This document shows, piece by piece, positions 15,834-39,860 of a stretch of DNA of 64,000 nt. Source of the stretch: an uncultured Verrucomicrobiae bacterium (GTDB lineage Bacteria > Verrucomicrobiota > Verrucomicrobiia > Limisphaerales > Palsa-1400); contig CAVPOM010000003.1 of the NCBI GenBank assembly GCA_963707025.1, forward strand, positions 256,001-320,000. Reading direction: 5' to 3'. The notes below the pieces were generated by a model. That model was not told the DNA's origin. It saw only the letters and a list, made by a program, of their open reading frames with translations, and did not search any database. The stretch's first letter is position 1. Each line of letters starts with the position of its first letter. Made by a program: the position numbers and the translations under genes.

Positions 15834-15923
15834 TTGCATCCCACAAAGCGAGGATGGAGGATGGAGTGAGTCAGGGCTCGAACGGAGTCTCGCCCTACCG
15901 GAGTGGGCGGGGCGAACTGGCGG

Positions 15924-17279: not shown

Positions 17280-20173
17280 AGACGATGAACTCCACCTTTC
17301 TATCCCGGCTCCATGCCGCCGCCAACTTGATTTTCAAGAGCGGGGCGCCCTTTCCCTTCAATAAGATCATGCCCTACGACGCCATGGGCGGGGAGCGGAT
17401 GTACCGGGCCTTCGAGCAGTCCACCTGGGTGATGAGAGCGATCAAGAAGATCGCCGGACCGATCGCGGCGGTGGATTTGCATTTCACGCGGGCGGGAGAA
17501 CGGTATCACCAGGCCGGGCTGGAGGCTTATTGGGAGATGCCGGGAGCGGGGCTGACGCGGACGGATTTGATCGAGGCGACGGTGGGCTGGCTCAAGCTGG
17601 AAGGGGAGGCCTTTTGGCTGCTGGATGATGCCTGGCTGGCGCCGTTTCCGGGGCAAGGAAATTTAATTGGCGGCGGTCACAGACCGCCGCTCGCGGTGGC
17701 GCGGCCGGACCGCATGCGGCATGTTGTCAAGAATGGAGAGTTGCAGGGATGGGAGTACGTGGACGGGGCGGGCCGGCGGGCGCTGCTCCTGCCCGAACAG
17801 GTCATCCAGTTGAAGCTGTGGAATCCTTACAACGACTGGCGCGGCATGGCGGAGTTGAAGCCGTGCCGGGACGCGGCGGAGGCGGATTACCTGGCGGGGA
17901 AGTTCAATTTAAACCTGATGCGCAACAACGGGGACCAGGGGGTCTATGTCATCGCCAAGGACGGGCTGCCGGTGGACGGGCAGCGCCAACAAATTGTGGA
18001 CCAGATCCGGGAGAAGCGGGAGCTGGCCCAGCGCGGGGTGTTCAAGCCGGTGTTTCTGGACGGAAACGTCACGATCGAGGACCCGAAGATCCGGGTGCCG
18101 GACGGGGATTTCATCGCCTCGCGGCTGCAGAACCGGCATGAGGTGTTTATCGCCATGGGTGTGCCGGCTTCGATGGCGGATGTCAAGGCCAGTTACTCCA
18201 TCGGCTCGGCCTCGGACTGGTTCATGCTCATCGCCGAGACGTGCATCCCGCTGGGGGAGAAAATCTGCCAGGGGATCAACCAGGTGTTGCGGCGCCAGGG
18301 GGCGGCGCAGGTCAGGGCCTCGCTCAATTGGGACGAGCATCCGGTCATCCAGGCCGTGCGCCGGGAACGGGCCGACACGGCGGCCAAGTATTTTGCCATG
18401 GGCGTGCCGCTCCAGGCGCTCAATGATTATCTGGACCTGGAGCTGCCGGCCTGCCCGGGTTGGGAAAAGGCGTATGTGCCGGCCAAGCTGGCGGAGATCA
18501 GCCAGGAGGCGGCGCCGGCGGCCGCCGTGACGGTGGATGACATGGATGACACGGTCGGCCTGATGCGGCAAGCCCTCAGCCCCGCCAACAGGATCAAACG
18601 GGCTTTTAACGCAAAGGCGCACAGGCGCGAAGACGCAAAGACGGAAGAGGACGGGAATGGCGGATTGGGATTAGGATCAAGATTAGGATTAAGATTAGCA
18701 GGCCAAGAGGGAGCAAGTCAGCGCGCGACGCCCTCCTGCGCTGAAGCTTCCTCCTTCACCGGGCCTGCGCAGGACGGGACGGAGGGCAGGGAGTCCCGCC
18801 CTGCCGACGGGGAGACGGCCGGAGTGCGCCCGTCCCCGGGCGCAGCCACTTTCGGACTTGCACCCCGCCCGGCCAATCCCGCAACCGCCGGGTCTTTGCG
18901 GCCGGCTGCGCCCGGGGACGGGCGCACTCCTTTGCTGATGAAGGGGTTCGTCCCGCGCTTTAACCGGGAGTTGATGAAGGCGCGCACGGAAACGCTGCGG
19001 CGGCTGGAGGGGAACGGGACTTTTGTATTTGACACGGCGGGGTTTGCGCGCGGACTGGCCACGGGACTGCGGCCGGTGGCGCAGGCGGCGTTGCAGGACA
19101 TGCAAAATGAGGACGAGCGGATCCTCTGCTTGGACAGGCGGGAAATGGTCTGGCGGGCGGAGGCGGAACGGATTGGACGGGAGATCGAGACGGCGGCGGG
19201 CCAGGCGGAGGGAGGCGGGCAGGCGGACGCGGTGCGGGCCAAGTTTAATGAGATCGCCAAACGCCGCGCCCCGGAGCTGGCGCGGGAGGAAATGGAGGCG
19301 CTCCACTGCGGATTAGGATTAGGATTAGGATTAGGATTAGGATTAAGATTAGGAGGGGAAGAGGGATCGAGTCAGGGCGCGACGGAGTCTCGCCCTACCG
19401 TCGGCGCGGGCGAAGCCGCTGCTGTTATTCCGGCCTGCGGCGGGCAGGGGACTGCCCGCCCTGCCGTGAAAGGAATGGGGGTGGCGCCGCTGCGGCGGCT
19501 GCTCCATCCGGAGGTCAGGGTGGTGGACGCGCGCCGGGGGATCGTGGATTATATCGCGTCGGATGAAAGTATTGACAGTTACAAGGAGGTCATCCGGGCG
19601 GCGGGCTGGCGCTTCACCCATTTTGCCCGGAATGCGCCCTTCGTGGATTCGCACGATTATTCCAGCATCGAGAAATGCCTGGGCAAGGTGATTGATTTCC
19701 GGGTGGACGGCGCGCGGCTGATCGAACGGGTGCAGTGGGCCATAGATGTGCCGGAGAACAAGCTGGCCCAGATCGGCTGGAAGATGACGGAGGCGGGCTA
19801 CCTCAAGGCGGTCAGCCTGGGGTTTTTTCCTGTCAAGTATGTCACGGCGGGCGCGGGGGAGGAATGGACCCGGCAGTTGCGGGAGCTGGGGTTGCCCGCC
19901 GACGCGCCCGTGCGCACCATTTACACCGAGCAGGAACAGGTCGAGCTGTCCTGCTGCGTGGTCGGGTCCAATCCCAACGCCCTGGCCAAGGCCTGGCAGG
20001 CGGGGGCCATCAGCGACGCGGACATCGCAACACTTTCCTTGGAATACTCACCCCGTGAAAACGGCCGCGCGGCCGACTGTCCTGCTCCCGCCGCGCCGGC
20101 CCCGGGGCAGGCACGGGCGAGGTTTTTGGAGGAATTGCACAAAGCAATGAAAACAGAAGAACAGAAATTATGA
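17276..20173 (+). CDS. HK97-type portal fused through a repeat-rich linker to an HK97-type prohead protease (965 aa)
   Basis: Portal: LKLEGEAFW, RPDRMRHV, EQVIQLKLWNPYNDWRGM, IAMGVPAS; protease: ASDESIDSYKEVI, FVDSHDY, LKAVSLGF, ELSCCVVGSNPNA; ATGA overlap with TerL. Confidence 0.85.
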   Translation: MKTMNSTFLSRLHAAANLIFKSGAPFPFNKIMPYDAMGGERMYRAFEQSTWVMRAIKKIAGPIAAVDLHFTRAGERYHQAGLEAYWEMPGAGLTRTDLIEATVGWLKLEGEAFWLLDDAWLAPFPGQGNLIGGGHRPPLAVARPDRMRHVVKNGELQGWEYVDGAGRRALLLPEQVIQLKLWNPYNDWRGMAELKPCRDAAEADYLAGKFNLNLMRNNGDQGVYVIAKDGLPVDGQRQQIVDQIREKRELAQRGVFKPVFLDGNVTIEDPKIRVPDGDFIASRLQNRHEVFIAMGVPASMADVKASYSIGSASDWFMLIAETCIPLGEKICQGINQVLRRQGAAQVRASLNWDEHPVIQAVRRERADTAAKYFAMGVPLQALNDYLDLELPACPGWEKAYVPAKLAEISQEAAPAAAVTVDDMDDTVGLMRQALSPANRIKRAFNAKAHRREDAKTEEDGNGGLGLGSRLGLRLAGQEGASQRATPSCAEASSFTGPAQDGTEGRESRPADGETAGVRPSPGAATFGLAPRPANPATAGSLRPAAPGDGRTPLLMKGFVPRFNRELMKARTETLRRLEGNGTFVFDTAGFARGLATGLRPVAQAALQDMQNEDERILCLDRREMVWRAEAERIGREIETAAGQAEGGGQADAVRAKFNEIAKRRAPELAREEMEALHCGLGLGLGLGLGLRLGGEEGSSQGATESRPTVGAGEAAAVIPACGGQGTARPAVKGMGVAPLRRLLHPEVRVVDARRGIVDYIASDESIDSYKEVIRAAGWRFTHFARNAPFVDSHDYSSIEKCLGKVIDFRVDGARLIERVQWAIDVPENKLAQIGWKMTEAGYLKAVSLGFFPVKYVTAGAGEEWTRQLRELGLPADAPVRTIYTEQEQVELSCCVVGSNPNALAKAWQAGAISDADIATLSLEYSPRENGRAADCPAPAAPAPGQARARFLEELHKAMKTEEQKL
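18662..18935. repeat. GATTAR hexamer run plus nested REP-like palindromes, in frame in the portal linker
   Basis: GATTAG/GATTAA units; CCCTCC..GGAGGG nested hairpins; GGAGTGCGCCCGTCCCCGGGCGCAGC...GCTGCGCCCGGGGACGGGCGCACTCC inverted repeat. Confidence 0.8.
19310..19466. repeat. GATTAG hexamer run plus REP halves, in frame in the portal linker
   Basis: (GATTAG)n encodes GLGLGLGLRL; GCGACGGAGTCTCGCCCTACC; GCGGGCAGGGGACTGCCCGCCCTGCC. Confidence 0.8.
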
Positions 20174-21433
20174 AGACGTTAAGTGAAGATCAATTCCAGG
20201 AGACAGTCCTGCGGGGAGTCAACGCGGTGGGGGAGAAATTCGAGGCGGTGGAACGCAACCAGGAGACGCTGCTGCGCAATTACGACCAGTTGGGCCGGGA
20301 AACCAAGCAAACCATGGAGGAGCTGACGCGGCTGAAGAACACGGCCAACGACCGCGCCCAGATTCTGAGCGCGGTGCAGAAGCTGCAACTGCAACTGCGG
20401 GCCGAAGCGGTCGCCGCCGGGATGGACCCGATCCAGCGCATCGTCAACGACCCGGAAAAAAGGGCGCGGCTGAACCTGGCGGTGCGCCTGGCGGTGGACC
20501 GGAACGGGGACCTGCGGCCGGCGATTGAACCGCTGGCCCGGGCCATCGGGGAGGACACCGGGGAAGGGGCGACCCTGATCATCGCGCAGTTGTTCAAGGA
20601 AATCTACGACACGCTGGCCCAGTACCGGGGACTGGAGCACGCTGGGGGTCAGGCGGCTGGGAACCAAGGTGACCAACTTCCCGGTCAAGACGGCCCGGGT
20701 GGTGGCGCAATGGCTGACCACCGAGGCGGTGGCCATCCCGGACGACACCAACGAGGCCGGTTCGACCATGACGCTGACCGTGCTGCCCAACGCGGTGCTG
20801 CTCAACGTCAGCCGGCAGTTGATCGAGGACGCGGAGTTCGACGTGACCACGGTGGTGATGGAGGACTTCCAGGAGGCCTGGAACCTGCGGCTGGACACGG
20901 CGGCCTTCACGGGCAACGGCACGGGCGACGGGAACAACGGCGGCTTCACCGGGCTGTTCAACGCCGGCAACAAGGCGGTGGCGGCGCAGGGGAACACGAC
21001 GGTGGCGGCGCTGGATTTCGACGACGTGACCCGCTGCCTGACGTCGGTGGCACCGGTGGTGTTGAAACGCAAGCCGCGCTGGTGGCTGCACCCGCAGATG
21101 CTGGTGCGGTTGATGGGGATCAAGGACAACAACGGCCGGCCGATTTTCCTGGGGGCGCTGGAGGCGCCCAGTTACGGGGCCATCGGCACCATCCTGGGCT
21201 ACCCGGTGACGGCGGTGATGGCGGCGCCCAACACCGACGCGGCCGGCCAACTGGTCGCCGCCTTCGGGGACCGGAACGGCCAGGTGGTGGGGGTGCGGGA
21301 CGACTTCGTGTTTGAATCGTCGGATCATTACCGGTGGAACACGCTGGAGCGGTCCTTCCGGGCCTACGGCCGGGCGGCCACAGGCTGCCGCCAGGCCAAC
21401 GCGTTTGCGATTTTGCAGACGGCGGCAAGGTAA
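20170..21433 (+). CDS. Major capsid protein, HK97 family (420 aa after removing one extra C near 20625)
   Basis: N-terminal coiled delta-like domain; LLNVSRQLIEDAEFD, AAFTGNGTG, IKDNNGRPIF, ILGYPV, AFGD. Confidence 0.85.
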
Positions 21434-21571: not shown

Positions 21572-22066
21572 ATGAAAAAGATATTGTTGACAATGATGGG
21601 GATGGCGGCGGCGGGCGCGGCCTGGGGGCAGGAGTATGCGAGCCTGCCCATCACCTACACGCCGCCGGGCACGACGAACACGGGGACGGCGCTGACCAAC
21701 GCGGTGCCGGCCAACGCCACCAACGCGGTGCTGAGCGATCCGATTGGACTGACGAGGTACGACAGTTGCGCCATCCAATGGGAGTTCAACGCCCTGAGCA
21801 ACGCCGCGCCGCTGGGCTGCACCAATTATCTGACGTTCGGGGCCTCGTCGGACGGGTTGGTCTTCACCCCGACGAACGCGCCGTTTCTGACGCTGACGGT
21901 GGTGATCCCGCCGACGGCGACCAACGGGGTGCTGGTGACCAATCTGTCCGGCACGCTGCTGGGAAGCATCGGCTACCTGCAGTTGCAGACCATGGCCTGC
22001 CAGGGGACGAACACCACCACCAACCATAGCGTGCTGATTTGGCGCAAGCCAAAGCGGAACGGGTAG
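21572..22066 (+). CDS. Signal-peptide protein directly after the capsid gene
   Basis: MKKILLTMMGMAAAGAAWG|QEY; beta-rich, TN-rich. Confidence 0.75.
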   Translation: MKKILLTMMGMAAAGAAWGQEYASLPITYTPPGTTNTGTALTNAVPANATNAVLSDPIGLTRYDSCAIQWEFNALSNAAPLGCTNYLTFGASSDGLVFTPTNAPFLTLTVVIPPTATNGVLVTNLSGTLLGSIGYLQLQTMACQGTNTTTNHSVLIWRKPKRNG

Positions 22067-22296
22067 GCCAGGGCGGATGGCGGATTGGGAGAAACAGGGA
22101 AGGGCGGCGGGGTTGGCGAGCCCCGCCGCCTGAGGGGGCTGAGATTAGGATTAAGATTAAGATTAAGATTAGGATTAACAGCAGGAGCGGGAGGCGTGAG
22201 GACGACAAGAACAAACGGAGTATGGGAGTGTAGGAGTATTGGGATCCGGAATCCCATCACTCCACCGCTCCACCACTCCATGACTCCATTCAGACG

Positions 22297-22941
22297 ATGA
22301 ATATTGGACTGGGAAATTTGACGGAGTTGAAGGGGCAGTTGCTGGCGGCGTCGCTGCGGAGCGACACGAATTATGACGCGGTGATCAGCGGGATCGGGCT
22401 GGGAGTGGCCAATTTGTTCGATCAGTACTGCAACCGGACGCTGTGCCGGACGGTGGGCAAGGTGGACACTTTCTCGGCGGACCGGCGGCACTGGTATCTG
22501 AATTGCTTCCCGGTGGAGACGATCACGGCGCTGGCGAAAAAGGACGATGAGACCGACGGGTTCGTGGCCTCCCCGCTGCCGCCGGCGCCGGGCTCGCTCA
22601 TCCAGGCGATGCAGCCGGACCAGGGCTACATCATGTTTATCTCGATCCAGGGCTATTACTGGTCGCGCATCCAGGTGACTTACACAGGCGGATTTTGGTT
22701 TCCGATGTTGGAGCCGGCCGATGCGGGCTACCCGGACACGATGCCGGCGACGGCCCATCCGCTGCCGGCGGCGGTGAAGTCGGCGTGGTATTTGCAGTGC
22801 CAGCAGGTGTGGAAGCGGATTGACAAGCTGGGGGCGCAGATCGCGCAAAACCCGGAGGGGCAGACGGCCCTGAGCGGGATCGGGCTGATCCCGCTGGCGG
22901 AGGAGCTGCTGCGGCCGTTCCAGAGGATGCAAATGACATGA
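22297..22941 (+). CDS. Head-tail connector/adaptor-like protein
   Basis: LTELKGQL, FDQYCNRTL, IQVTYTGGF, LPAAVKSAW. Confidence 0.7.
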   Translation: MNIGLGNLTELKGQLLAASLRSDTNYDAVISGIGLGVANLFDQYCNRTLCRTVGKVDTFSADRRHWYLNCFPVETITALAKKDDETDGFVASPLPPAPGSLIQAMQPDQGYIMFISIQGYYWSRIQVTYTGGFWFPMLEPADAGYPDTMPATAHPLPAAVKSAWYLQCQQVWKRIDKLGAQIAQNPEGQTALSGIGLIPLAEELLRPFQRMQMT

Positions 22942-23053
22942 GGAAGAAAGCGAAGAGTGACTAGTGAACAGTGAACAGTGGACAGTGGAAAGTGACCAGT
23001 GAACAGAATTTTAGAGCTAATCACTAACCACTAATCACTGACCACTAAAAACT

Positions 23054-23767
23054 ATGGACTTGCTTTTGCAATTGCAGCAGGACGTGTGCGACAAGCTGAA
23101 TTCGGAGGCGGCGTTTGAGTATCTGGCGGTGGCGACACTGCGCGGGCATGTGATCGGGAGCGAGATCGAACGGCGGGTGGCGCATCTGACGGGGAAGAAC
23201 GGGCGGAAGGGTTGCGGGCTGACGGTGAGGATGCCGTCGCTGCGGGGCTTGCAGCCGAATGTGGCGCCGGCGCAGGGGGAGGTGGCGGTGGCGGTGGATG
23301 TGGTGGAGGCGCCGGAGATCAATTTCAACGCGGGGGGAACGCGGGTGACGGCGGAGGAGGCGGCGCGGGCGGCGCGGAGGGCGCTGCACCAGTTTGCCAT
23401 CGAGGGGAAAATTCTTCTTTACCAGGATGAGAAGGCGATCGAACCGCTGGCGGGGCTGGAGAAGGAGTTTCCGGGCTGCCTGGGCTACCGGGTGCGGCTG
23501 CGGGGACGGATGAGCGAGGCGGCGGCGGGGAAATGCGCGCAGCCGGCCATAGCGGCGCCGGGGCAGACGGTGAGTTTTTCGACGACGGACGAGGGGGCGG
23601 GGATTTATTACACGACGGACGGGAGTTTTCCGGGGCCGGGGAATTGCGGGGGAACGGCGCTGGTGTATGCGGGGCCGTTCGAGGTGGATCCGGGAACGGT
23701 GGTGCGGTGGGCGGGTTATGTGGAGGGGTTGATGGGGAGCGACACGGGGGAGGCGACGATTGGTTAA
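23054..23767 (+). CDS. Putative tail completion protein with C-terminal Fn3-associated/chitobiase-C-like domain
   Basis: Position between connector and tube gene; IYYTTDGSFP...YAGPFEV motif. Confidence 0.55.
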   Translation: MDLLLQLQQDVCDKLNSEAAFEYLAVATLRGHVIGSEIERRVAHLTGKNGRKGCGLTVRMPSLRGLQPNVAPAQGEVAVAVDVVEAPEINFNAGGTRVTAEEAARAARRALHQFAIEGKILLYQDEKAIEPLAGLEKEFPGCLGYRVRLRGRMSEAAAGKCAQPAIAAPGQTVSFSTTDEGAGIYYTTDGSFPGPGNCGGTALVYAGPFEVDPGTVVRWAGYVEGLMGSDTGEATIG

Positions 23768-23862
23768 ACGCAGCATGGGGAATGCCGCGTGGATAATGCG
23801 AAAGGCAAAAAGCAGGAAGAAAGACTTGGAGCGGGAGCACGGAGTCAAACACACAATAAATT

Positions 23863-24784
23863 ATGAGCATATCGAGATCATTGCTGGCGGGCGGGCCGGC
23901 TTATGTAAATTTTAACGGGGCGAACATACCGCTGGGGGAGGATTCGCGGCTGGAGATCGCGCCGGTCAACCGGGTGATCAGCGCGGCACTCTACGGGGAG
24001 ATTGACGAGGTCTATGCGGACCTGGTGGTCAAGGGGACGGGGACGCCGCTGACCTACGATAATCTGGCAACGCTGTGGCCGTATTTGCAGCCGACGATCG
24101 GGGGGAGGATTTTCGGGAATGCGGACGCGGCGTTGCAATGGCTGTCGAACAACGGGGACGTGATCACGGTGAGGGCGGGGGCGGTGACGAGGATGCCGGA
24201 ATTAATCCTGGGGGTGGAGAAGGCGGGGATCGGGCCGATGGAGTTTGGCGGGGTGGTCGGCAATGGATTGGATCCGAGCGCGAGCAATTCGTATTACACG
24301 ATAGCCACGGGGCAGACGTTCAGCCCGCCGGCGATTGCGGCCGCGAAAATACCGCGGCAGAAATACACGGCGGGATGGGGAAGCGTGGCGGGGTTCACCA
24401 GTTTCCAGGCGCAGGAGGAGTGGACGATCACGCACGAGTTGAAGCTGGCGCCGGTGAGGATTCAAGGGCGGACGGTGGACATGAAGATCACGAGCTACCG
24501 GGCGATGGCGAAATGCATGCCCGGCGGAGCCGACGATGGCGGAAGTGGACGCGGCGCTGCTGGCGCAGGGAGGGGCGGCGGAGCACGGGGCCAAGCTGAG
24601 TGCGAAGGCGGCGGACCTGGTGATCACGGGAGCGCAGACGGTGAGTGTGACTGTCAAGAATGCGGCGCTGAAGACGGCGGGATTTGTGTTTGCGGGCAAG
24701 GCGCTGCGGAACGGGGAGATCGGGTTTGTGTCAACCATAAATGTGAGCAGCGGGACGGCCACGGCGGCGCTGGTGCTGGGATGA
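23863..24784 (+). CDS. Putative major tail (tube) protein; one extra C near 24521 (306 aa corrected)
   Basis: Position; LLAGGPAYVNFNG start; two ORFs join on a single-base correction. Confidence 0.55.
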
Positions 24785-24840
24785 GGAAATCAAGATCCGG
24801 ATCAGGATAAAGCAGGAGGAAGCAGAGGCGGGACCGAGGC

Positions 24841-25251
24841 ATGAAGATAACGATCACAGCGGGGGGAGCACCGGCGTTTGTGCTGGCGGACGACGCGGGC
24901 GGGGCGACGGTGCAGGATGGGTTTTGTCCGAAACAGACGCGGATTTTACAGAGCCAGGGGATGTTCCGGGCGGCCTACAAGGCGAACCTGCCGCGCTACA
25001 ACCTGGAGAACCGGCTGAGGTTTGTGGTGGAGCGGACCTTTGGGACGGTGGAGGCGGCGCTGAGCTTCATCGCCGGCCACGCCGACCAGACGCCGGCGCA
25101 GGGGACGCTGACGGTTTATAATCTGAGCGCCCGGGGACAGAGCCGGCGCAGCCTGGCCAACGCGGTGGTGGCGGAGGTGGAGTGCGTGGAACATGTGGGA
25201 GTGAGCTGCAAGTTTCAATACACCATCGCGGGAAACGGAGCCTGGCAATGA
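24841..25251 (+). CDS. Phage tail-region hypothetical protein
   Basis: Co-oriented ORF with GAGG RBS. Confidence 0.65.
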   Translation: MKITITAGGAPAFVLADDAGGATVQDGFCPKQTRILQSQGMFRAAYKANLPRYNLENRLRFVVERTFGTVEAALSFIAGHADQTPAQGTLTVYNLSARGQSRRSLANAVVAEVECVEHVGVSCKFQYTIAGNGAWQ

Positions 25252-25351
25252 ACAGGAAAAGCAATGCAACAGCAGCACCCCCAGGGGAGACAGGGGAGGT
25301 TCGACCCCGCCCCGCCCCTCTCCTGCAGGAGAGGGAACTGAAAATAAAAGT

Positions 25352-25987
25352 ATGAGCGCGATTGGAGTTTTACCGATTCGACTTTTTTGCGATCTGGCGG
25401 CGCGGAATGAGCCGTTGCTGGACGTTAATACCGGGCAGGCGGCGGTTTTCTATCGCGGGGACGACGTGGAGATAGACATCGGGATTGGGGAGGATGGGGC
25501 GCTGCTGGCGCCGGTCTTGTCCAACATAACCTCGGTGACGTGCCAGATTTTCGCCAAACAAAACGATGTCAACGCGCCGATGATGTCCTGCACGGTGGCC
25601 GCGGCCGGCATGAATTTGACGCTGACGGCGGCGCAGTGGGCGGGGAACACGGCGCCCTTTTATCACGCGGCGTTCGTGTTTCCGAATGGGCAGACGCAGA
25701 TCCCGCTCAACGGGGCGGCGTCGCAGAATTACTGGCTGCGCATCACGCTGACGACGGCGGACGCGGCCGCCAAGGTGATCACGCTGCTGGACGGGCCGGT
25801 CACGGTGCTGGACGGGCCGGTGAGCGGGGCCAGTCCGGGGGTGGGGAATGTGCGGTTTACGACGGACGCTTCCGGGAACTGGGTCTTGCAGCTCCGCAAC
25901 GACTCGGACGGGAAGTTTTACACGGTGGGGATTGAGAACGGGGCGGGAGGGATGCCGGGGCTTTACCTCGGAGACACGGGAAGCTGA
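25352..25987 (+). CDS. Putative baseplate/fibre-attachment protein
   Basis: FYRGDDVEIDIGI, beta-sandwich-like; precedes the fibre-like gene. Confidence 0.5.
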   Translation: MSAIGVLPIRLFCDLAARNEPLLDVNTGQAAVFYRGDDVEIDIGIGEDGALLAPVLSNITSVTCQIFAKQNDVNAPMMSCTVAAAGMNLTLTAAQWAGNTAPFYHAAFVFPNGQTQIPLNGAASQNYWLRITLTTADAAAKVITLLDGPVTVLDGPVSGASPGVGNVRFTTDASGNWVLQLRNDSDGKFYTVGIENGAGGMPGLYLGDTGS

Positions 25988-26016
25988 CTGAAATTTTGAA
26001 TTTTGAATTTTGAATT

Positions 26017-28498
26017 ATGAAAACGGAAAAGAATTTAGGATGGATCGGGCTGCTGTCTTTTTTCACTATTCTCTATTCTCAATTCACCATTCCGCTCCGC
26101 GCGCAGACGCGGAGTGCGGTCATGGTGAGCAACGCCACGGGGCAACTGGCCGGGCCGACAAACTTTTTTGCCGCGAACTCCAATTTGCTGAATCAGGCGG
26201 TCAATACGTCCGGTTTTGGGGGCGGCGGCGGCGGCGCGCCGGGCTTTGACCCCTGCTGGTTTTTCACCAACGCGGCGGGCAAGATTGACCTGGCGCTTTC
26301 GATCAGCAATTTCCTGAACGCCGCCCAAACCGGGTCGGTGAACCTGACCAACTGGTCGGCGCTGTCCACCAACATTTTGACGGCGATGGGTGCGGCCTGG
26401 ACCAATGCCATTGCGGGCGGGACCAACGCGCTCAACGCCGGGCAGTATCTTATCGCCAACGGCGGGACGGGCAACGCCAACACCTTCACCGGCGCGCCGC
26501 TGTTCCAGGGCGCGGGCGGGACGGGACCGGGCTTGGCGGCCACGTTCTACAGCAGCGGGACGGTGACCAGCGCCACCATCAGCAACCACACCGGCACCGG
26601 CACCATGCTCAATTTCGACAACGATCCAACCTCCGCCGGGGAGATCCCGTTCAATTTCGGGGGGGCGCAATACTGGATTGTCTGGGCGACGAGCAACCTC
26701 TGGCAAATCAAGGATCTCAACGGGCAGGCCGTGGCCACGTTCAGCAACCTCAATGACAGCCTGCTCCTCGGCGGAAACCTTTACAGCCCGAGCAACGCGT
26801 CCTTCGGCGGCAACTTGGCCATGAACGGTTCGGCCAGTTTTCTGGGCGCACTGACGGAAAGCAACCGCTATTCCTACCACACCAACGCCACATTTGTGGA
26901 ACCGGAAATCCTGCTCGGCGGCACGGGAACCTTTGCGGAAGTCTTCGAGTTTGGCGGACTGTTTGCCTGGCTGCGCCAGGTGCAGAGCAATACCTGGAGC
27001 GTGACCGATTTGAATAACCAGCATGTCATTGACTTCACCAACCTGACCGACAGCATCGGCCTGCACGGCAATGTCAACGTGGACAGCAATCTCACCGTGG
27101 CCGGCGCGGTTTCGATCACCGGCAACCTCTCAGCGGCCAACTTTGGCACGGCCGGCCAATCCAACGGCCTGCAATTCCTGGGAGGCTCTGGGCGGCCAGG
27201 GAAGCAATGACGTGCTCTACGCGCCCATCACCACCAATCTCCATGAGCGTGCGAATCTGACGGTGGATGGCCTCGCCTCTCTCGGCAACGGCAATTTCAA
27301 GGTGAACACCGCCGGCAATTCCACCAATGCGGGGAGCATGGCCATCCAGGGCAGTTTGACGGCGAGCGGTAGCGTGAACATCATCACCCATGCGATGAAC
27401 GGAACGGAAAAAGTGGACATTAACCTGGCCAACCTTTCGGACACAGACGCCCTGGCCGTCATGTCCGGCAACAACAGTTATAACTTCAATTATCCATCCG
27501 CCGTCGGCCCGGAATTTCAGGTCGGTCCGGGCGGCGGAATCAATGAGGCGTTTGTCTATTACAACGTCACCAACGCCGATGGCAATCTCGCTTTGGCGGA
27601 CAACATCTTCTCTGCGCCCACCTGGAATACGGTCATCCAGACTGGCGGGGCCAACACCACGCTGACCTTGCCGACCTCGACCAATTGGAGCACCTCCATT
27701 TATTCCGGCAACGCCGGTTCGCACGCCGTCAGTCTCTTCGGCTCCAACACCTGCGTTTTCGACGTTTTAAACGACGGCGGCGGCATCGAAACCGTGGTGA
27801 CGGCCGACCACGCCTTTTTTCACATCCTGACCAATGGCGGCTACATCGCCATCACCAACCCCTCCATCTCGGCCGGCCAATATATGAGGCTCTGCTACGG
27901 CGGCTCCAACGGCATCGCCATCCTCAACCTTGCCAACAGCTACCCGACGACCAGCGCCAGCCAACTGACCAGCGGCACGGTGCCGGACGCGGTGATGAGA
28001 AGTTCTGGGAGTTATGGGGATAATGAGTCGAACTATGTCCGCAGCGTCACCCTGCCAGGCGGCGATTTCATGCCCGCGACCAATGGCAATCTGGTCACTG
28101 CGACCAATCTGGCGGGCAGCGGGTTCGGCGCGCTCACCAATGGGCCGGTTTCCTTTGCCACCAATTTTACGGCCATCTTTGGCTCGAACATCTTCCAGAC
28201 CATCGTGCTGCCCAACAAGGACTTTTACCTGAGCGCGGTCAGCTTTGTCGGGGCGTCGCAGTATCCGCAGCCGCTCAATCTCATCCTGACAAACAATGGC
28301 AGCGCCACCACCGTTCACCTGTGGATTCCGACCAATCTTATGGCCTTCAACACCAATTGGACGGTGCTGGGGACCAATTACGAAATCCCCCTGACTAACA
28401 CCACCTTTGGCCGGGTGGCGCACCTGAGCATGCTGGCCCTGGCCCCCGACCCGACCATGCACGCCATCGAGTGGAACCTGGGAGTGACCCTGCCATGA
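26017..28498 (+). CDS. Large G/N/T/S-rich fibre/adhesin-like protein with signal peptide; one extra G near 27190 (826 aa corrected)
   Basis: ORFs 26017-27210 and 27071-28498 join on a single-base correction; internal repeat (WQIKDLNGQAVATFSNLNDSL / WSVTDLNNQHVIDFTNLTDSI). Confidence 0.7.
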
Positions 28499-28542
28499 CG
28501 GGGAAATGAAAAATGAAAAATGAAAAATGAAAAATTGAAGCC

Positions 28543-29373
28543 ATGAAAAAGATCAGACAGATGGGATCCCGATTCCGAATCGGGAGACCGATAGGCCTGA
28601 CATTCTGCATTTCTGCCCTTGCCCAGGGCAGCCTTTCCCCCGCCGGGATGGTTCCCTATCTGCTGCCCATGCCCACCAATGCAGTGGCTTCCAGCGGCGG
28701 CTACACCAACGTGGCCAACGGCCTGCTGGCCTGGTGGAAGCTCAACGACGGCACCGGGGCCAGCGCGGCGGATTCATCCGGCAACGGCAACACGGCGGCG
28801 CTGGTCGGCACGCCAACGTGGGGAACGGGCGATCTCACCCTCAACGGCACCAGCCAATACGTCAACACAACGGACGGCAACTCGATCAAGGGTTTGGCGG
28901 CCTATAGCTTGTGCTTTTGGATTGACGGCCCGTTGAACAATGCCAATGGGTCGGACCTATGGTGTGAGCACAACAATTCGGGAAGCGAGACGCGCTTTGA
29001 AATCTATGTCAATTACCCGGCCCCGTTCACGCTTTGGGTGGATGGCAGTTCAACGGATGCAGCGAGCACGGCCTGGATTACCGCGACCACCAGCGCCATC
29101 CCGGCGAACACCTGGACGCATGTGGCCGTGACAGTTGACTTGACGGCGGGCAAGGTGCTGGTCTATTTCAACGGCTCGCAAGACGCGACGACCGGAACTG
29201 TGAGCGGCACAACGTTTGTCGGGACCAACCCGCAAGTAGTCCCATGCCTGGGCAATGATCCCGACGGCGGCGGTTATTATTTGCCGGCCACGCTCTGCCA
29301 GGCGCGGGTCTATAATCGCGCCCTGACCGCGACGGAGATAAACGACCTTTTCCACTATGACGCGCATCCTTAA
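28543..29373 (+). CDS. LamG/concanavalin A-like domain protein with signal peptide
   Basis: GLLAWWKLNDGTG...DSSGNGN, WTHVAVT, VYFNG, ARVYNRALTATEI. Confidence 0.85.
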   Translation: MKKIRQMGSRFRIGRPIGLTFCISALAQGSLSPAGMVPYLLPMPTNAVASSGGYTNVANGLLAWWKLNDGTGASAADSSGNGNTAALVGTPTWGTGDLTLNGTSQYVNTTDGNSIKGLAAYSLCFWIDGPLNNANGSDLWCEHNNSGSETRFEIYVNYPAPFTLWVDGSSTDAASTAWITATTSAIPANTWTHVAVTVDLTAGKVLVYFNGSQDATTGTVSGTTFVGTNPQVVPCLGNDPDGGGYYLPATLCQARVYNRALTATEINDLFHYDAHP

Positions 29374-30751
29374 GATCGGCTTGACATTCTGCATTCTGCA
29401 TTTTGCATTCTGCATTAGGGCGGCGGGGACTGGCCCGGCCTATCCACTGAAATACAACGCCGGCCAGCATTACCTGGTGGACCAGAACAACGTCCCGTTT
29501 TTCATCATGGGCGACAGCCCCTGGTATCTGACCGAATCGCTCTACCAACCGGACATCCTCTATTATTTGACCAATCGCGCGGCGCAAGGCTTCAACTCGA
29601 TCATCCTGGACATCACCGCCGTCACCGAGGAAAGCGCGCAGTCTTTCCCCAGCCGGACAGGCAACATCTACGGGCAGGACCCGTTCACCGGCGTCATCGC
29701 CGGGCCTTACACCAACCTGGCCGCGATCAACGCCAATTATTTCACCAACGTGGACTGGGTTTTGAAGGCGGCGGCGTCCAATGGCATTTGCTGCTTCATC
29801 TATCCCATGTTTGACGGCGTGCAGGACGGCGGCGAGTGGGGCTGGTATCAGGACGCCGCGCAGAACAGCAGCAACGCCATCTACGGCTACGGCCAGTTCA
29901 TCGGCAACAGGTATGCCGCGCAGCCCAACATCGTTTGGATCGGGGCGGGGGATTTCGACGAGCCGCAGCCCCCCGATCCGGTTTGGACCATCATCGCCAA
30001 CGGCATCTTGTCCAAGGACAGCAGCCATCTCATGACCGCGCAGGCCGCGCCGTTTGAAGCGGCCAAACTCCACTACACAAACACCTGGTGCAACCTCAAT
30101 GACACTTATCCAAGGTCGCCTGGCCCGCAAAACACCACCTACGATTTTGAGAAAACCAACTGGTTCTATTCACCGGTCATGCCCAGCTTCTCGCGTGAGC
30201 CGTGGTATGAGAACGACCAGTGGGGGACCATCGGCACGAACTACTTTGACTGCCGGCGTTATGCCTGGGGATCGGCGACCTTCGGGGCCTGCGGCGTGTT
30301 TTACGGGAACCAAAACATTTGGGCCTTCAACGGCTCGGCTTCCAGCCAGGATTGGAAAAGCGCCATGCAATCCCCGGCGGCCGTGACCAACGTGATCAAG
30401 CTGCTGAACACGCGGCCGTGGTGGAACTTCGTACCCGACTACAACAACGCGGCGGTGAGCGCGGGTTATGGGACTTATGGCCAGGAGGCTTACGTGACGG
30501 CCATGCGCGAGGCCAGCGGGCAGGGGATCATTGCTTATGTTCCGTTTGGCACCATGACACCGACGGTGGCCATGAATCAATTGGCTGGATGGTCGGCGAC
30601 GGCCTGGTGGTATAATCCCCGGACCGGCGCGGGCACGGCCATCGGCGCCTATGCCACGAGCGGGACGCAGACTTTCACGCCGCCAGACACCAATGACTGG
30701 GTGCTGGTGATAGACTCGGTGCTGGCGCGGAGCGCGGGGGTTCACCCATGA
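29357..30751 (+). CDS. DUF4038 (apiosidase/GH140-like) protein with C-terminal collagen-binding-like domain and signal peptide
   Basis: YLVDQNNVPFFIMGDSPW, RAAQGFNSI, PNIVWIGAGD, EPWYE, AWWYNPRTG, DWVLVI. Confidence 0.8.
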   Translation: MTRILKIGLTFCILHFAFCIRAAGTGPAYPLKYNAGQHYLVDQNNVPFFIMGDSPWYLTESLYQPDILYYLTNRAAQGFNSIILDITAVTEESAQSFPSRTGNIYGQDPFTGVIAGPYTNLAAINANYFTNVDWVLKAAASNGICCFIYPMFDGVQDGGEWGWYQDAAQNSSNAIYGYGQFIGNRYAAQPNIVWIGAGDFDEPQPPDPVWTIIANGILSKDSSHLMTAQAAPFEAAKLHYTNTWCNLNDTYPRSPGPQNTTYDFEKTNWFYSPVMPSFSREPWYENDQWGTIGTNYFDCRRYAWGSATFGACGVFYGNQNIWAFNGSASSQDWKSAMQSPAAVTNVIKLLNTRPWWNFVPDYNNAAVSAGYGTYGQEAYVTAMREASGQGIIAYVPFGTMTPTVAMNQLAGWSATAWWYNPRTGAGTAIGAYATSGTQTFTPPDTNDWVLVIDSVLARSAGVHP

Positions 30752-30906
30752 GAAAAATCGGATTGACAAGATGGATGGGACTGATGGGATTGATGGGAGC
30801 GATGGGAGCCATGGGAGCAATGGGAGCGATGGGAGTGATGATGGCCGGCGGGGCGGGCCGGCGCCGCAATAACAGGCCAGGTGGAGATGGAGGAGAATAT
30901 GTCTGA
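30748..30906 (+). CDS. Signal-peptide-like mini-ORF built from 9-mer repeats (MRKIGLTRWMGLMGLMGAMGAMGAMGAMGVMMAGG...)
   Basis: ATGA overlap with upstream stop; GATGGGAGC-type repeats; one base from fusing to the 30881 ORF. Confidence 0.4.
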   Translation: MRKIGLTRWMGLMGLMGAMGAMGAMGAMGVMMAGGAGRRRNNRPGGDGGEYV

Positions 30907-31693
30907 AGAAGGCCCGGAGTTTGAAGTTCGTGTGGAGACGGCGCTGGAACTGGCCGGGGCGGAGGAGGGGGCGGCGGAGCTGGAGAGGGCCATCGGGAAG
31001 GCCAAGGCGGTGGGCCGGAATTTTGGCCGGTTGGCAAAGCAACTGGCCAGGGCCAGGGAAGGGGTGAGGCGGTTTCGCCTGGCACACCCAGGCGGAGGCG
31101 CCGGGGCGGTGGAGACAAGGCAGAATGCATCGTCCTGCGCAGAGGCTTCCACCTTGGCCGGGCCTACGGTGGACAGGACGGAGGACAGGACGGCGGAGGA
31201 GAAAGGGCAAGGGCAGCATGAAAAGCAGGGGAGGGATTACGAATTGGAAGAGGGAACGAGTCACGGCTCGACGGAGTCTCGCCCTACCGGGGCGGAAGGA
31301 GGGCAGGAGGGCAAAGGGACTGAGGCAAGACAAAATGCATCCTCTCCCGCCGGGCCTTCCACCTGCGCCGGGGCTTCGGAGGACAGGACGGCGGACGAGA
31401 ACGGCCAAGGGCAGAATGAAAACGAGGAGAGGGATTACGGATTGGAAGAGGGAACGAGTCACGGCTCGACCGAGCCCCGCCCGGCCGGAGCGGGAGGCGG
31501 CGATGGTGGAGACGGGAGGATGGCAGAGGCGGGCCGGCGGGAGGTGGAGGCGATGGTGCGGCAGGCGATGGAGGAGCGGGAAAGGACGCGGCCACAAAGG
31601 GAAAACCGGCCGGAGGAGGAGGCGCGGGTGGCGGCGCTGGAGTCGCGGCTGCGGTGGCTGGAGGAACGGACGAGGATTGGCCGGGATTTCTGA
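30881..31693 (+). CDS. Short/degenerate tape-measure-like protein with repeat-derived middle
   Basis: Helical ends (EFEVRVETALELAGAE...; ARVAALESRLRWLEER); position before the tail-tip gene; internal duplication of REP DNA. Confidence 0.45.
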   Translation: MEMEENMSEEGPEFEVRVETALELAGAEEGAAELERAIGKAKAVGRNFGRLAKQLARAREGVRRFRLAHPGGGAGAVETRQNASSCAEASTLAGPTVDRTEDRTAEEKGQGQHEKQGRDYELEEGTSHGSTESRPTGAEGGQEGKGTEARQNASSPAGPSTCAGASEDRTADENGQGQNENEERDYGLEEGTSHGSTEPRPAGAGGGDGGDGRMAEAGRREVEAMVRQAMEERERTRPQRENRPEEEARVAALESRLRWLEERTRIGRDF

Positions 31694-31846: not shown

Positions 31847-34222
31847 GTGACCTATACCACACTGACATACAATGGGACGGAGAAGTCGCTGGCTGATTGG
31901 GGGATCGGCAAGTGGCGGCGCGAGGCCTTTAACCAGGCGAGCGATTCGTTCGCATTCGATCTGCTGGCCGCGACGGACGCGGCGGAGATTCTCCCCTATG
32001 GGGCGATGGTCACAATTTCCACGGGGAGGACGCCCGGGCCGGGCGTCCCTACCCCGGCGAATGGACTGCCCGTGTCGGGCTGCACTTCATGGACGGGGGG
32101 CAAGAAATGGTTTGTCGGATGGCGGGTGCAGAACATCCGCACCGGGACGCCGGAGATGGAGGGGTTCGCTTACAGATTCGCGGGGCCGTGGGACTTTTTC
32201 TTCGAGCGGCTGGTTTTTCAGAAGCTGTGGCTGACCTGGAACGGGGTGAAGCAGATCGCCGACTGGCGCTCGCAAGTGGTGCTGGGGATGAGCGTCAATG
32301 CCCTGACCGGAGCGGGGGACACGGTGACGGGGAGCACGGCGACCAACCTGATGAGCATCAGTCAACAATTAAAGGAGATCGCGGCCTAAGTTATTGCGCA
32401 AAGTTCCTACGAGCAAACCATCAACGGGCTGGGCTGGCCGGCGGGCGGGCAACCGCAGTTTGACAACCTCACGACGGACGGGAACGGCAATTACGAGCTA
32501 TTGCCGGCGCCTGGCCCAAATTGCCGGATCCCGGATTTTGTGCCGGGGCTGGCGGGCGCAAGCGGAGACACGTCGGTTAGCACGTCGGGCCTTATGCTGC
32601 GCGCTCCTCTCGATGCGGTGAATGACATGACCTGCGGGGAGTGTTTTCGCCGCATGCCGCGCTGGATCGGGGCGGTAGGCTCGCCGGTGGCGTGGTTTGA
32701 TTATACGACGGCGCCGCCGACGCTGCAGGTGAGCACGCGGGACCAGTTGGCGGGCGTGGCGCTGCCGCTGGTCGGGGCCACCGAATCCATCAAAATCCAG
32801 CGGCGGGATGATTTGATCCCGTCGGCCATCGCGTTCAAGTATCGCATCAGCGGGCAGATCAATGGCACGCCTTATTCCATCATCGAGAATGACATTGCGG
32901 CCACGGTGGATGGCAGCGCGGTGGAGGGGATGGGGATGTTCGGGCTGCTGACCAATTTGCGCGGGGGCGCGATTTCCGGGGACGCGCAAACGCAGTTGCC
33001 GCAGCAGGCGCGGCGGTTGGCGGCGCAAATCGCGACGTTCGATTTCGAGGGGTTCTCCGGCGATACGGCCAGCGGGACGATCGCGACGGTGGCGCTGAAC
33101 CTGGCCGATCCGGCGGGCGGGGGAGCGGCGGCGGCGTTCTGGACGGCGCTGTTTCCGCAACTGGCCAATGTGAGCGGGCTGGCGTTTTATCAGGACCCGG
33201 CGGGAGCGGTGGCGCCGCTGGTGCAGGATGCCGGCGGCAATCCGATCAACACGGCGGCGTATCCGAATATCCTGGCGGACGGCAATGTGGCGCCGTGGAT
33301 GTATGTCAATAATACGCCGGGCAGCGCCACGCCGGGGCAATGCGTGGGGGCGACGATCACGGGTTATTTTGCCTACACGGACAACGCCAGCCCGGCGGCC
33401 GATCCGGACGTGAACCCCGGCACGGTGCAGTGCCATCCGCTGACCATCAAGGTCAAGCTGACCAATCTGAGCAGCGGCACCTATCAGTCGCGCCCGCAGG
33501 TCAACCCTGGCGAGCCGGTGCCCTACGGGCTGCCGGGTTACATTTACGCGATTGAATCCATCCCGCAATACCAGGGGAGTTTGAGCGTGGTGGAAGAGGA
33601 GATCGGCGACCTCTGCCCGCTGGGGCATGGTCTGAATCTGAGCGGAGGGCTGGCGGAATGGGGGACGATGAACGCGTGCGTGCAACAGGTCAATTATGAC
33701 GGGACGGGGCGGACGGAAATTATTTTTGGCCCCGCCCGGCATTTGGGGAACGCGGATCTGGTGGAGCGGCTGCGGGTGAACCGGGGGCCGCGCTGGTATA
33801 ATTTGATCGGGAACGATCTGTTGAACTCCAATCCGAGCACGGGGGCGACGGCGCTGGGAAAGAATGTGCCGGTGTCGTCGCCCAGTCCGGGGAACAAGGT
33901 GTGCAGTGAGACGCTGCTGCCGCAGAGTCTGAAGGATTTGCAAAGCCATTTGGCGGGCTACACGCAGTTGTTGCCGGGCGCTTATCTGTGGACAAAAGGC
34001 AACGGACGCAGCGGGCTGAGCCTGGTGGATGCGGGGCCGGGGCTGGCGCTGGCGGGGGGAAGCGGCGGGGCGCTGGACAGCCAGTACGTGCTGGTTTCGG
34101 TCGCGCAACTGCTCTCGGTGGTGGCGGGCCAGCCGGTGAAGTTCTTCGAGCTCAACACTTGCGAGGGCGGGGACGCGACCTATTACCGGACGTTCCTTTG
34201 CACGGACAAGTATCATCATTGA
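31847..34222 (+). CDS. Putative tail tip/hub protein with an in-frame TAA at 32387-32389 (791 aa read through)
   Basis: ORFs 31847 and 32501 share a frame and the sequence between them is open after the TAA. Confidence 0.6.
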
Positions 34223-34783
34223 TCGGGCTGATCGGACTGAGCAGACGGACCAGACGGATTGGACGGATTAGCGAGAATGAAATATGGCAAATCGAGTGGC
34301 AACGTGCCCCAGGGCGAAACAGATCGTCGGCTATAAGGGCTGGCTGGGCTGGGCGGGGGGCTTTGCCTTTCCGGGGTTCAAGGGGAATTGGGTTTATCCG
34401 GTGACTTATGCCGGCGGGGTGCCGACTAACAGCGGGCCGGGAAGCTGGACCTTTGCCGCGGACGGCGGCGCGATCACGGGCAGCACCGCCAACTTCGCCG
34501 CGGGCGACCTGGTGCTGCGGGAGTTCGAGCCGGCCGGTCCTTTGACGGATTATTTAACCGGGATCGCGCAAAGCTATCCGAAATACTGGACCGTTTATAT
34601 TTGCACGTCGGCCATCACCGGGAGCACGACGGATCCGGCGCTGGACAGCACCCATTTTGAGGCGTGGGATTTCCAGGTGTTCACCGTCAGCGGCGGCACC
34701 CTGACGACCGACGCGGGCAATGCGGCGGGCGGCTCCATTGGCGGCTCGGGCCGGGCGCTCTTTACGGAGACGACGGACACGGC

Positions 34784-35791
34784 TAGAGCGTTTCCATAAA
34801 TGATATAGCTTGACTGGGGCGAGAGGGCTGGCAGGCTTGAGCCATGCGAGCGATACCCGTGTCTGCGCGCGAGCGCATCCTGCAACTCTATGAACAAGGC
34901 AAAAGCACCCGCGAGATCGCGGACTTTTTCGGCTTTTGCGTGGCGGCGGTGCGCCGGGTCCGGCAGCAGTTCCAAGAGCGCGGCACGCTCCAGCCGCAAA
35001 CCCATTTGTGCGGGCGCAAAACGCTGCTGAACGCCGGACGCCAGGCTCGCCTGCAAAAGCTGGTGGCGGCCCAGCCCGACGCGACGTTGGCCGAGTTGGG
35101 GGCGCGTCTGGACCGCCCTTTCGGGACCTCCACTGTGGATTTGTGGCTGCGCAAACTGGGGTTGAGCTATAAAAAAAACGCTCTGCGCCGCCGAGCAGAA
35201 CCGTCCGGACGTGGCCGAAAAGCGGGCCCATTGGCATGAGCGTCTGGCAAGTGACCCACCTGCCCGACTGGTCTTCGTGGATGAAAGCGGGGCCAACACC
35301 AAGATGACCCGTTTTTGCGGGCGGTCACCCGTGGGCCGAAGACTGGCGGCCCACGTCCCGCAGGGACATTATCAGACCACCACCCTGGTCTGCGCCATTC
35401 GTCTGGCCGGGCCTGCGGCCCCCTGCCTCTTTGAGGGGGCCATGGACGGGGAAATGTTTTTGGCCTGGATCCAGCAGGGGCTGGTGGTGGAGTTGCGCAA
35501 GGGTGACTTGGTCATCATGGACAACTTGGCCACGCATAAGGTGACCGGAGTTCGCCAAGCCATCGAAGAGGCCGGGGCAACGCTGCTGTATCTGCCGCCC
35601 TATTCGCCAGACTTTAATCCCATCGAAAATATGTGGAGCAAGGTCAAACAAATTATGCGAGGTCTCGCGCCGCGAACCGCCAAGGAACTGCTCCAAGCGG
35701 CGAAGATTGCCTTTGAAGCCATCTCCACCGCCGATTGCCGGGGCTTCTTTTTAAACGCCCGCTACGCTACATGATTTATGGAAATGCTCTA
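34784..35791 (+). mobile_element. IS630-family insertion sequence, copy 1
   Basis: TA at both ends; IRs TAGAGCGTTTCCATAAATGATATAGC / GCTACATGATTTATGGAAATGCTCTA. Confidence 0.95.
34844..35774 (+). CDS. IS630 transposase (two ORFs joined by frameshift at the A-run near 35171-35178)
   Basis: HTH orf then VFVDES, VIMDNLATHK, LPPYSPDFNPIE. Confidence 0.9.
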
Positions 35792-36846
35792 ATTTAGAAT
35801 TGACAATCACGACGGCGCTGGACAATTTTCCCCTGATGCCGACGGCGATCAGCGGCCTGACGGCGGCTCTGGGCACGAGCAATGACAGCGCGCCGGCCTG
35901 GGCGGACGCCAGCGCGCAGGAGGCGGCGGCGGCGGGGACTTTTGTCCATGATTGGACCTTCCCCGGCAATTACGACGGGACAGCGGCGACTTACACGCCG
36001 CCGGGGACGCCGCCGGGCGCGGCGCAGGCGGAGCTGGTTTTTCCGGCGCTGCCCTATCAACGGACGGTGAATTTCTCCCCGGTCTATCCTGGCGGGGGCG
36101 CGATCAACAGCGTCTTCGCCATCGTGGCATCGCCCCCGGCGGTTTATCTGCCGGGCCTGGTGAGCTGGGCCTGTTCGGCGAGTTCGTTGCAATGGGAGTT
36201 CGCGGCCTGGAGTTGGAATGCGAGCGTGGAATACAGTTTCGCCCTCGGCCACTTTGGCGCGCTGGCCACGGCGCCGGGGACAATCACGCAGACGATCACG
36301 CTGGGCCGGCCTTACTCCTTAAGCGATGTGGCGGCGCAGGCGGCGGCCTTGATGAGCGCCACGACCTTTGCCGCGATTGCCTGGGGAACGTCGTGGCAGA
36401 ACACCTACGATGCCACCGGGGCGGTGGTCTCGACCCAGAATTTTGCGTTCGATGTCACCAACGCCATCACGGCTTCCTGCCGGATCGGCACGGAGGTGAA
36501 GTGGGGCGCGGCGGTCAACGGGCTGTTCACCTCGGGGGCGGCTTCGTGTTATTGCAGCAAAGCCCTGGTGGACGTGTGCGGCAATTATTGCCAGCGGACC
36601 TACCACTGCCCGACGGTGACGTGTGTTTCGGGCAATGTGGACGGATACGCGCCGGTGGAGATTGACCCGCCGGGCACGCCGGGGGAATCTTCTGCGATTT
36701 ACGCGGGGTGCCAATGCACCTGAAGAAATGCAGAGTGCAGAATGCAAAATGCAGAATGAAATGCGGCCTCCTCCGCAGAGCCTGCCACCTGCGCCGGGCC
36801 TTCGGTGGACAGGACGGTGGACGGGATGGTGGACAGGGAATGAAGA

Positions 36847-39474: not shown

Positions 39475-39555
39475 TGAGGGGGTCCCCAAAAACTAGACCA
39501 CTGCTGAAGAAGATAGACTTTTGTTGGTCTGCTGGAAATGAGAGAAAGCAGACTG

Positions 39556-39846: not shown

Positions 39847-39860
39847 AGAGCCTGGCGGAG

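Follow-up and report, generated by a model that had tools for sequence, protein, structure and literature searches.

Tailed-phage particles are held to be completed in the cytoplasm. What, then, could be the role of Sec-type signal peptides on genes that lie in the midst of a head and tail module? The question is raised by a 64,000-nucleotide stretch of DNA from an uncultured Verrucomicrobiae bacterium (contig CAVPOM010000003.1 of assembly GCA_963707025.1), here called the window (G000:C3:256001-320000, G000 being the genome it belongs to), in which gene calls and family scans revealed a run of phage genes, 24 kb long and all on the plus strand (12992-36723; Table 1). The original prediction singled out four genes in this run, starting at 21572, 26017, 28543 and 29357, and proposed that their products are either exported and join the particle late or have been repurposed by the host. 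All four open reading frames (ORFs) are present on the plus strand with leaders composed of n-, h- and c-regions, that of 26017 being marginal, and the labels LamG for 28543 and DUF4038 for 29357 hold. The four do not form one class: 29357 shares 61% identity with a host gene, and together with 28543 it lies in a cassette that the orthologous element of G003, a genome of the same genus, lacks. For the other two, the post-capsid protein 21572 and the fibre 26017, leader conservation and an unusual dipeptide mark suggest, with a probability of about 0.58 in our estimate, that they leave the cytoplasm by the Sec pathway, are probably modified in the periplasm and attach to the particle at lysis; cleavage, modification, the roles of the proteins and late attachment are the steps that we infer.

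Leaders of the post-capsid protein and the fibre

Leaders were scored with an n/h/c heuristic of our own that was benchmarked on 32 Escherichia coli proteins from one region, where 10/10 exported proteins reached at least 4.8 and 0/22 cytoplasmic ones reached 4.3 or more. The leader of 21572 (19 residues ending in A-W-G, next residue Gln) scored 4.99, a value attained by 0.5% of shuffled sequences (2000 trials for each of the four proteins). Scores were 4.92 for 28543 (27 residues, A-L-A, next residue Gln; 0.2% of shuffles) and 4.90 for 29357 (about 22 residues; 0.05%). The weakest of the four is 26017 (29 residues, L-R-A, next residue Gln) with only 3.8 and 2.8% of shuffles; its cleavage site rests on homologues, which agree. 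Among the 25 phage segments of the window that were tested, the sole other one above 4.3 is the lipoprotein encoded at 12992.

Related elements were found in Verrucomicrobiota/Limisphaerales. We tallied 35 of them from genomes of the order and IMG/VR, omitting repeats of counted elements (L047, L055, L057, L059, L061-L065, L067, L086, L091, L092 and seven further records), the short L053, the elements of G091, G201 and G372 (no capsid gene by our own gene caller), G155 and the capsid-only locus G013 C135. A 21572 homologue is encoded in 26 of the 35, always directly after the capsid gene, 0.49-1.12 kb past its stop codon; this place is fixed across divergent tail types, and codon use of the gene is core-like. 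Homologues lacking leaders, which the original prediction named as a reason to reject it, are not what emerged. A leader stands directly before the mature domain in 26/26 homologues (18 N-terminal, 8 internal) by a sliding version of the heuristic, which is prone to false hits, each case being also read by eye. A profile built from the mature part alone retrieved 478 clusters, the best 150 of which included 144 new representatives; 134 of these bear a leader (105 N-terminal, 29 internal), and most of the remaining 10 resemble fragments or mis-called starts. The leaders of the family consist of a single h-region with preceding basic residues and A-x-A/G, then mostly Gln. Across the tallied elements, core genes did not score: portal (0/31), protease (0/23), adaptor (0/31), 23054 (0/22), tube (0/20), 24841 (0/19) and hub (0/10). 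Apparent terminase leaders (12/24 with the sliding heuristic) were rejected, since these hits lay in open frames ahead of the true starts and were false. As judged from these comparisons, the leaders are real and conserved for 21572 and, as detailed below, the fibre.

In the internal form, the leader is preceded by about 100 residues with homology (E < 0.005 in 10 of 35 long forms; weak DUF7210 match) to a small post-capsid gene that other members carry without a leader; signal peptidase would presumably separate a tethered cytoplasmic piece from the exported domain. The mature part of 21572 is modelled as a jelly-roll sandwich (pLDDT 81.5) with generic matches to XepA (Z 8.9, rmsd 2.9, 107 aligned), YomS (Z 8.1), chain G of the 7-7-1 capsid (Z 6.8) and TNF-like lectins. 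Like jelly-roll decoration or cement proteins, PBSX XepA and SPbeta YomS, it is a single jelly-roll domain, and it is encoded beside the capsid gene; the structural matches to these proteins lie within the common-fold range. Position, predicted fold and a basic C-terminus conserved in 103/144 representatives make 21572 a candidate decoration/cement protein. Paired cysteines were discarded as a reason for export, 101/144 family members having none or one Cys in the last 125 residues.

The ORF 26017 is fibre-like, but it covers no more than the first half of a protein of about 820 residues (compare P0188). An N-terminal segment of about 35 residues is conserved and the remainder is variable; by eye, 8/8 long homologues carry a hydrophobic leader of 29-128 residues that ends just ahead of this segment. 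The preceding gene, 25352, encodes a protein whose model (pLDDT 90.8) has the fold of the N-terminal Ig-like domain of BppU. Of the six best structural matches, five come from siphophage baseplates or tail tips, and it resembles fibre-anchoring BppU/p132-type domains; matches include TP901-1 BppU (Z 9.7, rmsd 3.3, 124 aligned), 80alpha (9.1), NF5 (8.8) and the T5 tail-tip collar (7.9), the best being an Sf14 neck chain (Z 10.8). As in BppU-anchored baseplates, the gene precedes the fibre or is fused to it, and 25352 is likely a fibre anchor of the BppU type. The baseplate or tail-tip parts of TP901-1, 80alpha, NF5 and T5 are made in the cytoplasm, whereas here the fibre bears a leader. A leader was found in 0/120 stand-alone 25352 homologues among the matches listed; in three elements (L056, G015 and a capsid-less one on contig C12 of G000) adaptor and fibre form one protein behind a leader. 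Complex prediction with three 25352 chains and three fibre N-terminal segments gave 0.16 (mark 0.32), a value that we count neither for nor against an interaction. Neither 21572 nor 25352 nor the fibre matched a Pfam or PHROG family.

The Thr-Asn dipeptide in exported proteins

Thr-Asn is the most over-represented dipeptide in the host proteome. With an expectation calculated per protein, its observed/expected ratio is 1.99 in host proteins predicted to be exported (n=436) and 1.05 in those predicted to be cytoplasmic (n=1395). Within the exported set, no such enrichment is seen for Asn-Thr (0.93), Ser-Asn (0.96) or Thr-Asp (0.86), and small E. coli control sets gave 0.70 and 1.00 for Thr-Asn. 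In the window, the ratio is 2.50 for the four leader-bearing proteins and 0.67 for 14 leaderless core segments. There are 9 Thr-Asn versus 2.1 expected in the 145 residues of 21572, 23 versus 9.7 in the fibre and 8 versus 2.7 in 29357 (p about 0.001 or less in each case); the hub has 3 versus 3.2. The BppU domain shows a ratio of 0.66 where it is leaderless (n=120) and of 2.66 in exported fusions (n=3). Two Thr-Asn sites of the 21572 family are conserved in 56/63 and 59/63 aligned members; the ratio of 3.09 for the family representatives is partly circular, as the profile contained Thr-Asn columns.

Because it is order-specific and confined to exported proteins, Thr-Asn resembles a modification site, and we regard it as a candidate for an undescribed modification of exported proteins; glycosylation is a guess. 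That phage proteins carry this periplasmic-side signature argues against accidental leaders as well as against tethers with cytoplasm-facing domains. N-glycosylation of the STT3/PglB type is not supported, as PF02516 and PF21436 found no match in the 88%-complete host genome and N-x-S/T is not enriched in exported host proteins (1.09). Ten host GT-C genes of the PMT_2 family exceeded the cut-off, none of them tied to Thr-Asn. In the G000 proteome, the ratio is 2.41 in 67 proteins with a C-terminal FYR-type motif, and small samples from G009, G096 and G368 agree on a Thr-Asn excess in exported proteins.

Weighing late attachment against its alternatives

Under the reading that we prefer, heads and tails would be assembled in the cytoplasm, and 21572 and the fibre would be exported by the host Sec pathway, cleaved, kept in the periplasm and modified there at Thr-Asn sites. 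Given their predicted export signals, these outer parts likely fold outside the cytoplasm. The lipoprotein 12992 likely belongs to a lysis cassette together with a lipase, a candidate membrane-disrupting enzyme, and the small protein 14306, possibly holin-like as judged by position; this cassette would open the inner membrane, whereupon 21572 could bind finished heads and the fibre the BppU-like tail collar. In the proposal of export and late joining, export is supported by leader conservation and Thr-Asn, and gene position and BppU fusion favour the joining. P22 tailspikes and T4 and T7 fibres bind late in vitro. According to a review (PMC7602432), decoration proteins attach late, in the final stage of assembly or once it is complete, and can also do so in vitro; the accessible part of this review mentions neither signals nor the periplasm.

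The best link to real particles is Cellulophaga phage phi10:1 (GenBank KC821618), a cultured tailed phage with an HK97-type head. Its consecutive late-tail genes gp091-gp094, annotated as structural from tandem mass spectrometry (MS/MS), encode Sec-type leaders followed by Gln. They score 5.2-6.2 and gp095 scores 4.9; the other 14 genes of gp076-gp096 that lack such a leader, which include head, connector and further tail genes, score 0. Phage phi10:1 differs from the element in its Bacteroidota host, in having no leader-bearing post-capsid gene and in leader-bearing proteins without Thr-Asn excess (0.32). Virion proteins with cleavable signal peptides are familiar from filamentous phages, where M13 pIII and pVIII are inserted into the membrane and extruded without lysis; unlike these phages, the element in the window has terminase, portal, HK97 capsid and tail genes. 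In other published cases, as far as the accessible parts of these sources go, signal peptides were counted in two Bacteroides phages and roles were not assigned (PMC5723332), and phage sortase substrates and outer-membrane proteins were given cell-surface roles (10.64898/2026.10.24.761521). Within the openly accessible literature that was searched, we found no description of exported tailed-phage virion parts, capsid membrane hairpins or a Thr-Asn mark.

A number of points weigh against late attachment. The detection of the leader-bearing phi10:1 proteins in phage preparations could reflect co-purification, and since they are devoid of the mark, Thr-Asn modification is not the general reason for export. 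No cultured phage was matched by 21572 or capsid sequence, and roughly ten of the 35 elements are closely related to one another. Nine of the 35 have no match to the 21572 family and G016 lacks a fibre gene, making both proteins dispensable. At a cut-off of 4.5, the heuristic accepts only 8/15 genes in the fibre slot, the others having long or repeat-coded leaders. The jelly roll of 21572 is generic, with no cement protein standing out at a best Z of 8.9. Finally, the LamG protein shows no Thr-Asn excess (3 versus 2.6 expected), and a transferase of the STT3/PglB type is missing from the host genome as far as it is complete.

A more ambitious picture, which we offer tentatively and would not back at even odds, is that of a two-compartment phage family. 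Heads and tails would be cytoplasmic, some built on a membrane-tethered capsid precursor; decoration proteins and fibres would be periplasmic and Thr-Asn-modified by an undescribed host system; and both sets would meet at lysis to give a virion coated with host glycans. New in this analysis are the Thr-Asn mark, the internal signal peptides and the membrane-hairpin capsid leaders of relatives.

It is unlikely, but deserves most attention among the rivals, that the proteins are exported and stay with the cell, where they would serve the lysogen as surface adhesins, as blockers of receptors or as periplasmic enzymes, the element being kept by the host for that end or as a particle-like device. 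The lack of integrase and replication genes, residence at the same site in G000, G003 and G005, which belong to one genus, and dN/dS values of 0.06-0.44 against G003 all fit this idea, as does the 26-30.7 kb block, whose GC skew and third-position bases differ from the core. Of the genes in this block, 29357 has a host paralogue (61% identity) on contig C18 in a sugar-gene region and is likely cargo captured from the host; a 29357-type gene occupies the same slot in G005, and no relative was found on viral contigs. For LamG 28543 only distant relatives were found; the nearest (31%) forms the end of a protein with a leader, whose gene is one of several consecutive leader-bearing ones on a 122-kb viral contig. 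By sequence, 29357 appears to be ordinary exported cargo of the cassette and 28543 may be so too, and the patchy presence and atypical composition typical of morons are seen in these two only, not in 21572, with its core-like codon use and fixed post-capsid place. Cell-associated export is further opposed by the fusion of the fibre to a BppU-fold domain in three elements, by the decay of the G000 copy and by the purifying selection that capsid, tube and hub share. Host repurposing as posed in the original prediction keeps some plausibility from the stationary site, but it is not the origin of the leaders, because prophages with early genes (G015) carry them too.

Improbable, in our view, is a function of the leaders as uncleaved membrane tethers for assembly intermediates, with the attached domains remaining cytoplasmic. 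Tethering does appear to be present in the family: nine of the 35 related capsid proteins (L056:7577, L060:6293, L087:9860, L093:9836, L098:9719, L103:9815, L033:11998, L069:9522, L076:5908) start with a basic stretch and then one or more hydrophobic segments (two or more in six of the nine) without a clear A-x-A cleavage site. The segment or hairpin precedes the delta domain, and such hairpins would anchor the immature capsid protein to the inner membrane until its N-terminal domain is cut off by the prohead protease. The leaders of 21572 and the fibre are built differently, a single h-region being preceded by basic residues and followed by A-x-A/G and then mostly Gln, and the mature parts show the Thr-Asn mark of exported proteins, which hairpin capsids do not (0-0.8 Thr-Asn per 100 residues).

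That the leaders are mere accidents, in-frame tandem-repeat DNA or mis-called starts with the true proteins beginning downstream, is very improbable and largely ruled out for 21572 by conservation in its homologues: the h-regions of 26017 and 29357 do overlap short tandem repeats abundant in G000 that also enter the lipase in-frame, and the sliding heuristic did produce the false terminase hits, yet most leaders of the 21572 family are unrelated to repeats or to each other while keeping the n/h/c form, and the Thr-Asn mark is independent of the choice of start.

If the preferred reading is true, a conserved Sec route would give decoration and receptor-binding parts a further step of assembly, at lysis or later, phages could make use of periplasmic folding and modification, and a signal peptide would become unsafe ground for calling a phage gene a moron; should the parts indeed reach the particle, this would be a new variant of tailed-phage assembly. 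The Thr-Asn mark itself suggests that exported proteins of the lineage undergo a modification not yet described, and it offers a sequence-only test of the compartment of a phage protein. The claim is testable in cultured phi10:1, and L103, a prophage of cultured Luteolibacter marinus, carries a capsid hairpin and one leader-bearing tail gene.

Setting and decay of the element

The element is flanked by what we take to be an RND efflux operon on one side and ubiX/ubiA-like genes on the other. Its genes are arranged as lipoprotein, class 3 lipase, small membrane protein, terminase, portal-protease fusion, HK97 capsid, 21572, head-tail adaptor, tail genes, 25352, fibre, LamG, apiosidase-like hydrolase, short tape-measure-like gene, hub and last tail gene (Table 1). 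Gene calls and Pfam/PHROG family scans recognised no integrase, repressor, replication gene or endolysin in 12992-36723.

Table 1. Features of the phage element, with positions in the window.
Feature	Position	Strand	Evidence
Lipoprotein with SPII-type leader, first gene of the element	12992..13351	+	heuristic 5.6 SPII; homologues in G003, G015, L051, L056
Class 3 lipase with in-frame repeat insertions	13378..14313	+	PF01764 (E 2.9e-31)
Small protein with single hydrophobic segment	14306..14695	+	no Pfam or PHROG match
Putative small terminase and large terminase	15168..17279	+	PF03237, PF17289; phrog_5909
Portal joined in-frame to prohead-protease-like domain via repeat-rich linker	17276..20173	+	PF04860, phrog_2662, phrog_4523
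HK97-type major capsid protein, frameshift near 20625, leaderless here	20170..21433	+	PF05065
Signal-bearing post-capsid protein (leader 21572-21628), candidate decoration/cement	21572..22066	+	predicted jelly-roll beta-sandwich
Head-tail adaptor, leaderless	22297, within 22297..25251	+	phrog_442 (weak)
Tail-completion-like protein with Fn3-associated domain, leaderless	23054	+	PF13290
Tube-like protein, broken near 24523, leaderless	23863	+	label from position alone
Distal-tail-like protein, leaderless	24841, block ends 25251	+	label from position alone
BppU-N-fold adaptor, leaderless, likely fibre anchor	25352..25987	+	structure model and structural matches
Signal-bearing fibre-like protein (leader 26017-26103), frameshift near 27190	26017..28498	+	homologues
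Signal-bearing LamG (concanavalin-like) protein, variable cassette	28543..29373	+	PF13385 (E 2.7e-23), phrog_8510
Signal-bearing apiosidase-like hydrolase	29357..30751	+	PF13204 (E 7.2e-54), PF12904 (collagen-binding)
Short degenerate tape-measure-like protein	30881..31693	+	position and longer homologue in G015
Hub-like tail protein, in-frame stop at 32387, leaderless	31847..34222	+	single 797-aa ORF in G003
Last tail gene, leaderless, interrupted by IS630-type element (34844-35774)	34284..36723	+	single 495-aa ORF in G003; PF13358

The position of 21572 right after the capsid gene holds, but the capsid gene itself is frameshifted, and so are tube and fibre; with the stop in the hub and the IS630-type insertion, the G000 copy has five lesions. 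Host genes were broken in only 1/39 comparisons with same-genus orthologues (some genes counted repeatedly), so genuine decay is likelier than assembly error, and the copy is broken and probably makes no particles. The orthologous element of G003 has the same flanks, and its capsid (420 residues), tube and hub are intact; dS between the two elements is mostly close to that of flanking host genes. The G003 fibre (L035:17137-20276) is likewise frameshifted, with a different and presumably SGNH-like body, its intact form being P0187. The ubiX site is occupied in G000, G003 and G005 (which holds the right end) and empty in G002 and G004; ubiX was not found in G001.

A compact head-tail cluster that lacks genes for replication and integration, stays at a fixed site and, its five lesions notwithstanding, has dN/dS values suggestive of purifying selection is reminiscent of gene transfer agents of the RcGTA type. 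The element differs in being patchy, broken in G000 and near ordinary prophages with early genes (G015); membership was ruled out by this patchiness, with a close capsid in 5/31 family genomes.

A scan for promoters and terminators gave chance levels (6 promoter-like sites versus 5.0 expected, 21 terminator-like ones versus 19.1). Tandem repeats typical of intergenic DNA in G000 lie at 13627-13690, 13784-13860, 18660-19400, 26050-26095, 29380-29415 and 30748-30870 of the window, and their in-frame translation contributes to the lipase, to the linker between portal and protease and to the h-regions of signal peptides; at 30748 begins a short remnant ORF whose leader is repeat-coded. A second, near-identical copy of the IS630-type element that splits the last tail gene is located at 56305-57236, and a presumed IS3-like element at 39538-40742. 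Between the element and ubiX, a 77-residue ORF (36847-37080) is conserved in G003 and G005.

Small elements with few virion genes occur at G000:C12:198600-209200, G096:C113, G235:C162 and G013:C135, the first comprising the leader-bearing adaptor-fibre fusion and a tape-measure-like gene without a capsid gene; their long ORFs presumably resemble Mu transposition genes. Terminase genes also reside amid host genes where no capsid gene accompanies them, often preceded by a small gene, as in G004:C82 and in G009:C1 (near 2.18, 2.30, 2.59, 2.76, 3.50 and 5.25 Mb), and in the family genomes a terminase match was obtained in 24/30 and a capsid match in only 8/30.

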